DNA of 64,000 nucleotides from Eledone cirrhosa (Eukaryota): contig OZ024747.1 in assembly GCA_964016885.1 (NCBI GenBank), forward strand, positions 9,982,001 to 10,046,000, in the 5' to 3' direction. Every line of letters starts with the position of its first letter. The first letter of the stretch is position 1. Both the position numbers and the translations under genes were made by a program. Below, one piece after another: positions 3,102 through 33,100 of the stretch. A model generated the notes under the pieces. The model made no database searches and was not told where the DNA came from. It was given only the letters and a program-made list of their open reading frames with translations.

Positions 3102-3198
3102 TTTGGAAAAATTAAAATTGAACTTCATGAAAGAAAACAATATACAGATGAAGAAGAGTCAGACGTAGAGGAAACTGTGAGGTTATGTGAAGATAAAG
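3102..3198 (+). CDS. GPAT4: GPAT3/4 exon A (FGKIKIELHERKQYTDEEESDVEETVRLCEDK)
   Basis: Polypyrimidine acceptor tttctttatatacag; donor AAG|GTATGT at 3199 gives the phase 1 required by the next exon. Confidence 0.75.
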
Positions 3199-6100
3199 GT
3201 ATGTTTTGATCCTCTGTTTAGTCTTATATCACATTATGTGAAGATAAAGGTATGTTTTGATCCTCTGTTTAGTCTTATATCACATTATGTGAAGATAGAG
3301 GTATGTTTTGATCCTCTGTTTAGTCTTATATCACATTATGTGAAGATAGAGGTATGTTTTGATCCTCTGTTTAGTCTTATATCACATTATGTGAAGATAG
3401 AGGTATGTTTTGATCTTCTGTTTAGTCTTATATCACATTATGTGAAGATAGAGGTATGTTTTGATCCTCTGTTTAGTCTTATATCACATTATGTGAAGAT
3501 AGAGGTATGTTTTGATCCTCTGTTTAGTCTTATATCACATTATGTGAAGATAGAGGTATGTTTTGATCTTCTGTTTAGTCTTATATCACATTATGTGAAG
3601 ATAGAGGTATGTTTTGATCCTCTGTTTAGTCTTATATCACATTATGTGAAGATAGAGGTATGTTTTGATCCTCTGTTTAGTCTTATATCACATTATGTGA
3701 AGATAGAGGTATGTTTTGATCGTCTGTTTAGTCTTATATCACATTATGTGATGATAAAGGTATGTTTTGATCCTCTGTTTAGTCTTATATCACCTTATGT
3801 GAAGATAGAGGTATGTTTTGATCCTCTGTTTAGTCTTATATCACATTATGTGAAGATAGAGGTATGTTTTGATCCTCTGTTTAGTCTTATATCACATTAT
3901 GTGAAGATAGAGGTATGTTTTGATCCTCTGTTTAGTCTTATATCACATTATGTGAAGATAGAGGTATGTTTTGATCCTCTGTTTAGTCTTATATCATGCT
4001 CTATCACTCTGTCTGGCAGTCTGACACTGTATCACTCTGTCCGGCACTCTGAAACTCTATCACTCTGTCACTCCAATAAGATATTTCAGTATTTAAATGT
4101 TGATATTAAATGTTGATCAGTGACTTATGCTGTCAATAATTCTCATTGATTAAATTTACTTAGAATCTCGTTCAGATGATGACCTCCATCAGCTTCATAG
4201 AACTTCACTTTCAAGTGGTCTCTAAATAAAAGCTTATCTAGTACTTTGTAAGTGTACACATACCTTCCCATCTCCATCTTCATCATAACTACCGTCCTTA
4301 ATATTAACAAAAGGTTATCTTGATAATTTGATAAATTTTTAGGTTTTTTTAAAATGCATTTGTTCATGTCCTCCAATATGCAATTGATATTATTATTATT
4401 ATCATTAGTATGGCAGTGGATTGGCAGTATCGGTAGAGGGACGGACGCTGTGCTTTGACGCATAGTTACGGCCTTTGCCATTCTGAGTTCAAATCCCGCC
4501 GAGGTTAACTTTGCCTTTCATCCTTACGGGATTGATAAAATAAAGTACCAGTAATATACTGGGGTAATTGCTGGCCTTGTGCCAAAAGTAGAAACAATTA
4601 TTATTATCATTAGTAATGCTTTTGCTCTGGCAGATGTCATACCAACACTATACCGAAGGTACAAGCCATGGGCAATGACCAAAGTTCCTTTAGATCATTC
4701 CTTCTCCCTCAACTTCCCAACACCTTCCTTAGAATCCTTTCTGTTGCTAGCAAGGCTGTCTTCTGCAACAATCCTGTCCTGGTGGTAATTCCTAGCTTCT
4801 CAAGCCATGCATCTAACCTTCTAACTCCTCCCAGTGCACCAACCACAATCAGTACCACTTGTACGTGTTTGATTCTCTCCCCTCTCTCTCCCACCACTCT
4901 CCTCTCTCTCTCTCCCACCACTCTCCTCTCTCTCTCCCCCACCACTCTCCTCTCTCTCTCTCCCACCACTCTCCTCTCTCTCTCTCCCACCACTCTCCTC
5001 TCTCTCTCTCCCACCACTCTCCTCTCTCTCTCCCACCACTCTCCTCTCTCTCTCCCACCATTCTCCCTCCTCTCTCTCCCACCACTCTCCCCCTCTTTCT
5101 CCCACCACTCCCCCTCTCTCTCTCCCACCACGCCCCCCTCTCTCCCACCACTCCCCCTCTCTCTCTCCCACCACGCCCCCCTCTCTCCCACCACTCTCCC
5201 CTCTCTCTCTCTCCCACCATTCTCCCCCCTCTCTCTCCCCACCACTCCCCCCTCTCTCTCTCTCCACCACTCCCCCCCCCCCTCTCTCTCCCCACCACTC
5301 CCCCCTCTCTCTCCCACCACTCTCCCCTCTCTCCCCACCACTCCCCCCCTCTCTCTCTCCCCCCACTCCCCCCTCTCTCTCTCCCACCACTCTCCCCTCT
5401 CTCTCCCACCACTCCCCCTCTCTCCCACCACTCTCCCCTCTCTCTCTCTCCCCACCACTCTCCCCTCTCTCTCTCTCTCCCCACCACTCCCCCTCTCTCC
5501 CCACCACTCTCCCCTCTCTCTCCGATTTGTAATTTCTTAGGTTATATCATATGTTATTATATCATATTATATATACCAGTAATGTACTGGGTAATTGCTG
5601 GCCTTGTGCCAAAAGTAGAAACAATTATATATTATATTATATTATGTTTTTTTCTCTTGTTACCAAATTAGCGTCCCATTTGATAGAGAGAGACATAGCA
5701 CTATCTGCAACAGCCGGAATAAAGATCCCAGATGTGGAGACAATATCAGAGAGTCTCAAACATGAATTCCATCTCACTGACGTTATGTATTTTACCAAAT
5801 GTGGAGTTGAAGTAAGTTCTACCAAATCTCTCCTCCTTCTTCTTCTTCCACTTATTCCCGAGAGGGTTGTAGGGGCAGAGTCCTCAGACACTCCTTCCAG
5901 CAGGTCCTGTCAGAAGCAACCATCTCCAAATGATCCGCCTGGATCCCCAAGTGAGATCAGCCAAGCTCATGGATGTTATCCAACCATCTTGTTTGGGATC
6001 TCCTGCTGGTTGGTTTCGCCTGTAAAATCTGGCCAGCGATTCTTTCCTGAGACATTCTAACTAAATCTCTTTATTATTTTCATTTATCTTTATACTTTTA

Positions 6101-30100: not shown

Positions 30101-33100
30101 TTTATGAGTTTGTTGGTTAAACATTAATTAATATATTTCTCTGTAGACTGAAGGAACATGTTGATGATGAAAATAAATTACCAATCCTGATATTTCCTGA
30201 AGGTAAGTGGCTCAGTTTTACCTGGAAATATGCATGAGGTTGGGCTGAAAAGTTCTTGGCCGACTATGAAGGAGTGATGCTTGAGCAGTGAAATCTTGCA
30301 TCCATTAAATTCAACTCTCCTTATCAATTACTGCATTGTTTCTTTCTAGGGACTTTGTTGAAAAATATACCTCATTTGGTCATTCCATGGGAGTATCTTG
30401 GTCAGCCTATGAACTTTTCATATTGTTTCCTCTGGTGTCCTTGATCTCCACACTACCAGGTCTCATAGACCTCTTGTGTCCTTGGTCCCCACACTACCAG
30501 TTACCATAGAGACCACTGGTGTCCTTGGTCCCCACAGTACCAGGTACCATAGACCTCTGGCATCTTAGGTCACTCAACTGCAAGGTCAACAATTTGGAGG
30601 AAGGAGAAAGTTGATTATATCAACCCCCAGTACATAACCAGTACTTTATTTTAACAATGGAAGGATGAAAGAGAAAGTTGACCATAGTTGGATTTGAACT
30701 CAAAATGTAGAAAGTCATAACTAAATACCACAAAGTAATTTGTCTGATGCTCCACTGATTCTGCCAATTTATGACTGAAAAACATTTATAAGAAAGTTCC
30801 TTTGTTTGTTTTAGTTATCAGGTTAAGGTCAAGCTAGACGACCTAATTAATTTTTAATATATTTATTTTAATGATAATAATAATAATGAAAATATTGTGT
30901 ACAGTGCTCAGGTGCACTACAACTCATCAAAAGTGTATGTATAGTACATAGGGTAATGTACAAACGTCAGGAAAATGGACAGTGCATGAGTCATGATATA
31001 CACGTGTGTATGTGTATGGAAGGGGGACATCAGGTGTAGTTTTGGCGAATTTCGAGAAGCATGAGGGTTTTAAAGGATGCAGTGTCTCGGCAGCTAACAA
31101 CTGACGCAGGCAGTTTGTTCCATGCTTCAGCAACTCAAAGTGTTAAAAAATATTTAATCATTCGATATTTTCCAGGTACCTGTATAAACAACACGTCAGT
31201 AATGATGTTCAAAAAAGGGAGTTTTGAAGTTGGGAGAACAATTTATCCTGTAGCTATTAAAGTAAGTCTCTCTTGTTTTAACAATTTATCCTGTAGCTAT
31301 TAAAGTAAGTCTCTCATGTTTTAACAATTTATCCTGTAGCTATTAAAGTAAGTCTCTCATGTTTTAACAATTTATCCTGTAGCTATTAAAGTAAGTCTCT
31401 CTTGTTTTAACAATTTATCCTGTAGCTATTAAAGTAAGTCTCTCATGTTTTAACAATTTATCCTGTAGCTATTAAAGTAAGTCTCTCTTGTTTTAACAAT
31501 TTATCCTGTAGCTATTAAAGTAAGTCTCTCTTGTTTTAACAATTTATTCTGTAGCTATTAAAGTAAGTTTCTCTCTTGTTTTAACTGTTTTATTAACATA
31601 TTTCTCGTGAAATATATTGAATGTCATCATCATCATCATCATCATTTAACATCTGTTTTCCCTGCTAACAAGAGTTGGACATATTATCACAGATCAATCT
31701 GTACTCAAGTGGTGTGTCTGATAGCCAGATATATAATCTAAGGTTCTACCAAGAGTATTTTATCACGGCATCAATGCTAGGGGAATTATGTCTTTGGTAT
31801 AGCTGAAAAGTCTTTATGACGTCATGTTTGGCAGGTTTTCTACAGATGGATGCCTTTTACAGAGTGTACTGGGTGATCATAATAATAATAATGACTTTTT
31901 TCTTTTTAATTTTTGTCAGTATGATTCAAGATTTGGAGATGCATTCTGGAACAGCAGCAAAACGAATCTACTTCGGCATTTAAGTGACATTATGTCAAGC
32001 TGGGCTCTGGTTTGTGATGTCTGGTATCTCCCATCAATGACGAAAATGGTGAGTTTATTCTTTAAGCTTAAATTTCATTTAATGTAAACTTAAAATCTAA
32101 AGGATTTTTATTACTGAATTCTAAAATTGGCACAAATCTCTAGATTTATTTGGGGCAAAGTATATATAGATTAAACTACCATTATCCCCTGCACCACCTT
32201 CTGTATATATCTGGTAATTTATTTTATGAACCCAGAAAAAATGAGGGACAAAGTCAGCCCCGAACTTTAATTTCAACTTTAAGGCATTCAATCAAACATT
32301 TGTTGCCTCTTTTAAAGGTTTAGTGATTGTAAACAGGGAGAGTATGTTTGCATAACTTAACCCCAGTATCTCTGGTACTTCTGTTTATCACAAGTCAATA
32401 AGGGTTATGGCAAAATGAAATTTGAAAGGCTGGTATTGTTGATTTAATTAACACCAGTAATTAACTAGTACTTTAACCAACATCAGTAATTAACTAGTAC
32501 TTATTTTATCTTTGAAAGAGGGAGAGTAGAATCAAACTTGGCAGGATTTGAACTCAGAATGTCAAGGGACAAACTAAGCCCAGTAGTTTTTATTCCTCTA
32601 AATTTCCTGATTATTTATTAGTTTGGTTTAAAAAAAAATACTTTTATTCCTTGTTTTTTAGGATGGTGAAGATGCTGTGTCATTTGCTAACAGAGTAAAG
32701 GCTGAGATTGCTAGGAAAGGAGGATTAGTGGACTTGGAATGGTAAGTGGACATTACATCTTAGTTACAACTCTAACACTAAGATATTTAGAAATGATACC
32801 CAGTAGCTTTCATAAGGAGTTGATATCCACTGTAGTTCTTTTATTTGTGTTTCTGTAGTAAACTTAAATGGTTCACGTGTTGTGTGTGTGTGTGTGTGTG
32901 TGTGTGTGTGTGTGTGTGTGTGTGTGTACACATACACATACAGGATGTGCAATGTCAATGTGCGTGAACGACCAAGCATAGATGAGTTGAGAGAGAAACT
33001 GTGTATAAGAGGGATAAGTTGTGGTGTGCAGGAAGAAGACTGAGATGGTATGGACATGTGATGCGCATGGAGGATGACCGTTTTGTAAAGAAGTGCCAAG

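Follow-up and report, generated by a model that had tools for sequence, protein, structure and literature searches.

Mirage-type minisatellites span three splice donors of an octopod GPAT3 gene

We analyzed a 64-kb stretch of Eledone cirrhosa DNA (assembly GCA_964016885.1, contig OZ024747.1, positions 9,982,001 to 10,046,000 of the forward strand), here called the window, which carries exons 2 to 15 of the gene for glycerol-3-phosphate acyltransferase 3 (GPAT3; 3102..36213, + strand). Three of the 13 splice donors of this gene are embedded in tandem arrays whose unit is the end of the exon together with the start of the following intron. By structural criteria (junction-spanning unit, reiterated splice signal, and local origin), these arrays are mirage-type donor-spanning minisatellites, and they extend a described repeat type to cephalopods. 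On balance, they probably are tandem genomic copies that arose by ordinary duplications of 30 to 50 base pairs (bp) and were tolerated via use of the first donor.

Results

Three arrays start within exons and reiterate the splice donor

A first-pass annotation, made from the sequence alone, had described three unrelated arrays that start in the last 16 to 25 nucleotides (nt) of an exon and include its GT donor. Tandem Repeats Finder (TRF) and the exon coordinates bear this out. All three arrays are on the + strand. The 51-bp array at 3183..3996 consists of 16 copies of a unit formed by the last 16 nt of exon 2 and the first 35 nt of intron 2 (TRF: 16.0 copies, 3183-3996, 98% matches). The array at 22713..26560 has 101 unit starts and a unit of 39/38 bp, corresponding to the last 16 nt of exon 8 and the first 23 nt of intron 8 (TRF: 99.4 copies, 22713-26509, 94% matches). 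At 31237..31585, eight copies of a 43-bp unit combine the last 25 nt of exon 12 with the first 18 nt of intron 12 (TRF: 8.1 copies, 31237-31585, 97% matches). Exons 2, 8, and 12 end at positions 3198, 22728, and 31261, and the arrays start 16, 16, and 25 nt inside them, respectively. An intact donor motif is present in 16/16, 96/101, and 8/8 units of the 51-, 39-, and 43-bp arrays.

All 26 junctions of the gene in the window (13 donors and 13 acceptors) were scanned for local copies. A 24/24-letter copy was found at exactly three donors, those of exons 2, 8, and 12, in agreement with the earlier count of amplified donors. The other 10 donors reached 12 to 16 of 24 letters, the exon-8 acceptor reached 18/24, and the remaining 22 junctions reached 11 to 16.

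In the 51-bp array, a single exon position is variable: copies 1, 2, and 12 carry the letter of the exon, and the other 13 of the 16 copies share a derived letter that is missing from the exon copy, making later turnover visible. In the 39-bp array, the distal units have decayed to 27 to 41 bp, and 28 of 100 units are 38 bp long. The last copy of the 43-bp array is a variant. Thus, in all three arrays the inner copies evolve in concert and the boundary copies are left out, as is characteristic of mirages. The 39-bp array lies between two copies of the 7-nt sequence ATTGTAT in direct orientation, and a 3-nt repeat or overlap is present at the borders of the 43-bp array; both were read by eye, and the off-register matches of an automatic microhomology search were set aside. 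The short distal units and the 7-nt bracket suggest that the 39-bp array may have started from a seed of approximately 30 bp with later GGT expansion. In searches of the window, the 51- and 43-bp units had no match elsewhere, and the 39-bp unit matched only GGT/ACC simple repeats. The three arrays are therefore locally derived and not dispersed elements.

Read with the first donors, the gene encodes an intact GPAT3

The gene was identified by its open frame, orthology, and Pfam matches. Its exons 2 to 8 are located at 3102-3198, 5672-5811, 14500-14542, 16676-16730, 18814-18879, 21598-21672, and 22639-22728, and exons 9 to 15 at 26985-27075, 29595-29710, 30147-30202, 31176-31261, 31920-32048, 32662-32741, and 36128-36213 (all + strand). 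A single open frame of 403 amino acids runs across these 14 exons, and the introns are GT-AG. When read with the first donors, it matches residues 51-453 of Octopus bimaculoides GPAT3 (record P0001) without gaps and with 389/403 identical residues. It is 96.8% identical to GPAT3 of O. vulgaris and O. sinensis, and over the three Octopus records the gap-free identity is 96.5 to 96.8%. The Pfam domain Acyltransferase (PF01553) was matched on exons 9 and 12 and, together with the orthology to named GPAT3 proteins, places the product among the GPAT3/4 acyltransferases. Exon 1 was not located: residues 1-29 had no tblastn match in the window.

Tandem repeats are abundant in the gene and the window

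Tandem repeats make up 39% of the window and 14,255 of the 33,112 nt (43%) of GPAT3; with arrays collapsed, the gene is 19,839 nt long. The argument of the first-pass annotation that junctions are a tiny fraction of a 33-kb gene was thus overstated. We defined complex arrays as having a period of at least 15, not being simple-repeat-like, and having a score of at least 80, which excluded 32 simple-repeat or low-score loci. By this definition, GPAT3 contains 16 complex arrays; 12 of the 13 introns have one or more, and 13/16 arrays touch no donor. Five of the 16 (starting at 9596, 19419, 21139, 26563, and 32443) derive from dispersed repeats. Each of introns 7 to 13 (21673-32661) harbors at least one complex array; these introns are 436 to 4256 nt long now and collapse to 150 to 880 nt, which means that arrays make up most of their present length. 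Simple repeats at 16783, 18936, 29504, and 29733 start or end 21 to 57 nt from exon edges.

Arrays near acceptors do not span the junction

Two further intronic arrays on the + strand had been noted as ending 15 to 20 nt before an acceptor and as containing CTAAT motifs. For the 28-bp array before exon 6 (18180..18793; TRF: 21.8 copies, 93% matches) this holds: it ends 20 nt upstream of the acceptor, and its last CTAAT has the A at position -26, a normal branch-point distance. The last copy likely contains the branch site, as judged from its position. The AT-rich, decayed 35-bp array before exon 11 (29887..30138; TRF: 7.4 copies, 85% matches) departs from the description. According to TRF, it ends 8 nt upstream of the acceptor; CTAAT occurs in inner copies, the last one at -55, and the terminal copy has TTAAT (-20/-16). 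Neither array spans an exon-intron boundary, and both are minisatellites over the branch-site zone rather than mirages. The probability of at least two arrays ending within 40 nt was 0.07 for all 16 arrays and 0.024 for the nine with at least five copies. The motif CTAAY is found in 4 of the 16 in-gene units, namely, the 28- and 35-bp units and two others.

Local duplication of one acceptor, also claimed earlier, was found at exon 8. Decayed local duplications (22408..22647, + strand) include one copy of the acceptor, together with a small number of exon letters, that lies 185 nt upstream of the authentic site (22440-22462 versus 22625-22647; 87%, 18/24 letters).

Probable use of the first donor at exon 12

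If donors other than the first were used, the consequences would differ between the arrays. In the 51-bp array, later donors meet an in-frame stop (first 12/16 examined), and in the 43-bp array they lead to a frameshift or a stop (8/8 examined). Donors 2 to 4 of the 39-bp array (22713-22883) are in frame and stop-free and would add 13, 26, and 39 glycine-rich residues. Leakage to these donors would insert residues shortly before the catalytic motif in exon 9. Each of the three array donors is of average strength, with a 7/9 match to a hand-typed consensus.

A run search gave eight rows, five of which contained part of the stretch, and listed no RNA run among them. Sequence records from four of the eight runs (X1, X4, X5, and X6) were compared over 29810-32860, a span that includes the 35- and 43-bp arrays. 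No splice joint was among the 15 joints listed for this span (521 further joints exist). Since high-copy mobile repeats swamp such joint tables, donor use was read from bin depths. Run X4 contains a 1678-nt contig with a depth of 14.5, which aligned to 31920-32047, corresponding to exon 13 (31920-32048). The X4 bin depths were 7.95, 3.41, 13.6, and 10.9, compared with 7.96, 3.41, 13.8, and 10.8 expected from exons only. In the bin 31238-31339, the depth of 3.41 equals 14.5 x 24/102, the value for the first donor, whereas 9.52 would be expected for donor 2; the depth was 0 over 31340-31543. We read this as use of the first donor (31261) in the main transcript. At exons 2 and 8, first-donor splicing is likewise probable in view of the gap-free orthologue matches. 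No insertion at these junctions was present in 11/11 members of two cephalopod GPAT3 clusters, some of which are partial and which come from other species that may be without the arrays. The suggestion that the arrays modulate splicing found no sign in its favor at the one array tested, the 43-bp array.

Read support for the arrays

A contig of run X1 covering 29992-30363, across the distal copies of the 35-bp array, showed 0 differences from the assembly. Over 31442-31543, within the 43-bp array, the X1 depth was 16.6, whereas single-copy contigs had approximately 5.7; a collapsed multicopy repeat would give such an increase. X1 may derive from the very sample that was assembled. The 43-bp array is collapsed in contigs, and X6, a restriction site-associated DNA run, was without depth over 31238-31543. 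In run X5, from a relative, the depth was 13 to 62 over the 35-bp array, with none over 31340-31543. We do not count as evidence the hint that the 35-bp array, but not the 43-bp array, is shared with this relative, since the X5 records are filtered and AT-rich sequences cross-match.

Discussion

Relation to described boundary-spanning repeats

The name "mirages" was given to tandem repeats across exon-intron boundaries in amphioxus Adh3, as cited in later work, and such repeats are also described for the globins BflGb6 and BflGb9, troponin C, and PGBD5 (PMC3087553, PMC3902484). According to these accounts, splicing is undisturbed, the repeats undergo concerted evolution without the boundary units, and the mechanism of generation is unclear. 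Like the amphioxus mirages so described, the GPAT3 arrays repeat in tandem an exon-intron boundary of their host gene, splice signals included, their unit sizes overlap with those of Adh3 (10 to 72 bp), and inner copies are homogenized while end copies are left out. In contrast to the amphioxus cases, the host is a cephalopod mollusc, there are up to approximately 100 copies, and all three clean cases are on the donor side.

In humans, donor-spanning variable number tandem repeats are described in F7 intron 7 (37 bp, 5 to 9 copies), 6-16, CBS intron 13, lamin B2, and PDGF, and in F7 experiments the most upstream donor was selected (PMC1557585). As in these repeats, the first unit in GPAT3 spans the boundary and the donor is repeated into the intron. 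Unlike the human genes as presented in that source, GPAT3 has three arrays instead of one per gene, and its units contain 16 to 25 exon nt instead of the 4 in F7. In addition, pseudo-donors are described as partly used in 6-16 and CBS, whereas no such use was seen at the 43-bp array. Internal tandem repeats at exon-intron boundaries are also reported for human duplicated genes, together with intron gain by tandem duplication (PMC2812944). There, as in GPAT3, the repeats carry splice signals; the human repeats create new introns or alternative splicing, whereas the GPAT3 exons match octopus proteins gap-free, with no evident change in structure. The pattern at the junctions is therefore confirmed, but it belongs to an already named repeat type, which the first-pass annotation had missed. 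Our open-access literature searches found no cephalopod mirage case and no genome-wide test of junction enrichment.

Probable origin by ordinary duplication, tolerated by geometry

The account that we prefer starts from what is directly observed: the anatomy of the units, their local origin, the intact protein read with the first donors, and the abundance of background arrays. A short tandem duplication at the DNA level, by slippage or microhomology-mediated repair, would happen to straddle a junction. Unequal exchange or gene conversion would then amplify and homogenize the inner copies, with the end copies lagging. Selection would purge duplications within exons and let donor-straddling ones pass. 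Finally, an array tied to an exon could not be deleted as a whole, unlike an array in the middle of an intron, and may live longer. Tolerance follows from geometry, since exon and donor are preserved in the first copy and later donors mostly lead to stops or frameshifts; the arrays are likely harmless. The units are split into 16/35, 16/23, and 25/18 nt of exon and intron, which makes genomic DNA or unspliced RNA the template, two possibilities that are indistinguishable. The mixed picture of 7-nt, 3-nt, and no border repeats in the 39-, 43-, and 51-bp arrays fits slippage or microhomology-mediated duplication, and the 7- and 3-nt bracketing repeats are in line with a model of minisatellite origin from flanking repeats of 5 to 10 bp, summarized with other models in PMC3389668.

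How strongly the donors stand out depends on the null. The local excess at donors was approximately 3- to 7-fold under every null tried, and larger for near-perfect copies, which is suggestive. When the 16 collapsed arrays were kept in their own introns, 0.88 donor hits were expected (P = 0.051), and with acceptors included, 1.77 junction hits were expected (P = 0.25). With acceptors also counted as targets, uniform placement gave P = 0.048, and a point-wise duplication scan of all 26 junctions gave P = 0.003 to 0.057. GPAT3 is one gene, picked among very many scanned for showing the pattern, and thus no rule on exon borders is established. The four steps above, together with this post hoc choice, would yield a 3- to 7-fold excess without splicing making repeats. 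Our assessment, held with some reserve, is that the excess stems from chance and from the purging of duplications within exons, and that exon-anchored arrays possibly also survive longer.

Several observations weigh against this account. Under uniform placement of the 16 arrays, 0.42 donor hits were expected and 3 were observed (P = 0.008), and for the nine arrays with at least five copies the value fell to P = 0.001; these nine long arrays gave P = 0.011 even when kept in their own introns. Placement on nonrepeat DNA of the 11 arrays without dispersed-repeat origin gave P = 0.004 to 0.014, and in the point-wise scan 3/13 donors compared with a background of 1 to 5% gave P = 0.0004 to 0.024. 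Arrays are also concentrated in short introns (11/16 in 5.1 of 18.6 kb, P = 7e-4), and 7/16 lie at most 50 collapsed nt from an exon versus approximately 10% in the background, although two of these adjoin donor arrays and are perhaps not independent cases. Furthermore, no microhomology was found at the borders of the 51-bp array, and the longer life of exon-tied arrays is hypothetical. Finally, donor use was read indirectly and from one array, in a run that is not on record as RNA and from contigs, which drop rare forms.

Alternative explanations

These numbers lend some weight to a less probable, though by no means negligible, explanation, according to which exon edges truly are hotspots where tandem duplications arise at the DNA level in repeat-rich invertebrate genomes. 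Exons could act as islands of identity between homologues, so that recombination or repair tracts stall and misalign where identity drops; alternatively, co-transcriptional pausing or R-loops behind the 5' splice site could expose a strand to slippage. The local excess in all nulls, the presence of three unrelated units within one gene, the young look of the donor arrays (94 to 98% matches), and the several amphioxus genes with such repeats, whose generating mechanism is called unclear in PMC3087553, all speak for a hotspot. The single gene chosen after the pattern was seen and the P of 0.05 to 0.25 under the per-intron null speak against it, as does the average strength of the three donors. 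A symmetric homology-edge model would also tend to give some near-perfect copies at acceptors, and none was found at 13/13. As for R-loops, which the first-pass annotation had proposed, the sense-strand G-skew is +0.26, +0.66, and -0.17 for the 51-, 39-, and 43-bp arrays and -0.99 for the longest non-donor array; this is no common signature, and the inconsistency among the donor arrays gives the proposal no support. Of the broader idea that splicing or transcription seeds the arrays, the donor excess survives under several nulls, but it comes from one selected gene and weakens under the most conservative null.

Repair-associated copying of the seeds from RNA (spliced mRNA or an intron lariat), the other route proposed earlier, is highly improbable. 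The position at splice signals and the branch-site-like motifs in two arrays would suit it. However, the units straddle the junction, with 16 to 25 nt of exon and 18 to 35 nt of intron; a copy of a lariat would have the GT as its first letters, a copy of spliced mRNA would connect two exons, and neither is seen. Unspliced pre-mRNA alone could serve as the template, indistinguishable from DNA, and CTAAY is not special to the 28- and 35-bp units. Birth coupled to splicing in general is neither demonstrated nor contradicted by these data, and its lariat form is unlikely. We also doubt strongly that the arrays were kept for tuning splicing, either through the in-frame 39-bp donors ahead of the catalytic motif or through extra branch sites that alter inclusion of exons 6 and 11. 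Donors 2 to 4 of the 39-bp array are open, in human 6-16 and CBS splicing also takes place at the first one or two pseudo-donors downstream (PMC1557585), and repeats associated with splicing variation are reported as common in humans (PMC10078293). Against this, use of later donors in the 51- and 43-bp arrays gives stops or frameshifts, the 38-bp units break the frame in the 39-bp array, no junction insertion occurs in the 11 cephalopod cluster members, and at exon 12 donor 1 alone is evident in X4. A regulatory role thus finds no support. It is just as implausible as RNA templating that the arrays are assembly artefacts. No single record runs across the whole compared span, no long read is among the records, and copy numbers are unverified. 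On the other hand, recurring interspersed unit variants and decayed ends give the arrays the look of minisatellites, unlike the usual collapsed or stuttered assemblies, and the X1 contig and depth agree with real repeats, with the proviso on its sample given above.

Significance

Whatever their origin, the arrays offer, within a single gene, three natural reporters for "first donor wins"; one of these has approximately 96 decoy donors, three of which are in frame. They are also a warning for annotators and read mappers, because an exon end may be encountered as many as 100 times. Their importance would grow if births proved to be truly overrepresented at junctions in a genome-wide test. If exon borders were birth hotspots, mirages would form a mutational signature that is general and can be counted, and they would steadily supply alternative donors and new introns; octopus genomes would permit a test at scale.

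Other features of the window

Besides the donor arrays and the two arrays before acceptors, the gene contains 11 other complex minisatellites, which form the background (3999..35530). They start at 3999, 8261, 9596, 19419, 21139, 21853, 26563, 27282, 30429, 32443, and 35142. The last of these, a 40-bp array (35142-35530), lies at the edge of broken open reading frame (ORF) remnants on the - strand of intron 14 (33700-35170). By eye, these remnants resemble a hAT-type transposase; two pieces of them had no match to a Pfam family.

Upstream of exon 2, positions 2-985 (+ strand) contain the 3' end of a non-long terminal repeat retrotransposon ORF, open over 327 amino acids and matched by the Pfam family zf-RVT (E = 1.9e-6). 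It is followed by AATAAA and then by a 395-nt (TCTG)n tract (1205-1599). Downstream of the gene, a 69-bp unit is present in both orientations (47888-48338, +; 48539-48757, -; 48756-49098, +), flanking a dispersed-repeat insert. A 123-bp array with 44 copies (56509-61801) has a unit that matches adjoining dispersed repeats and contains a variable (AAC)n tract; this array was born from a mobile repeat. Finally, an intergenic long inverted repeat with arms of approximately 50 nt was seen by eye at 40083-40178.

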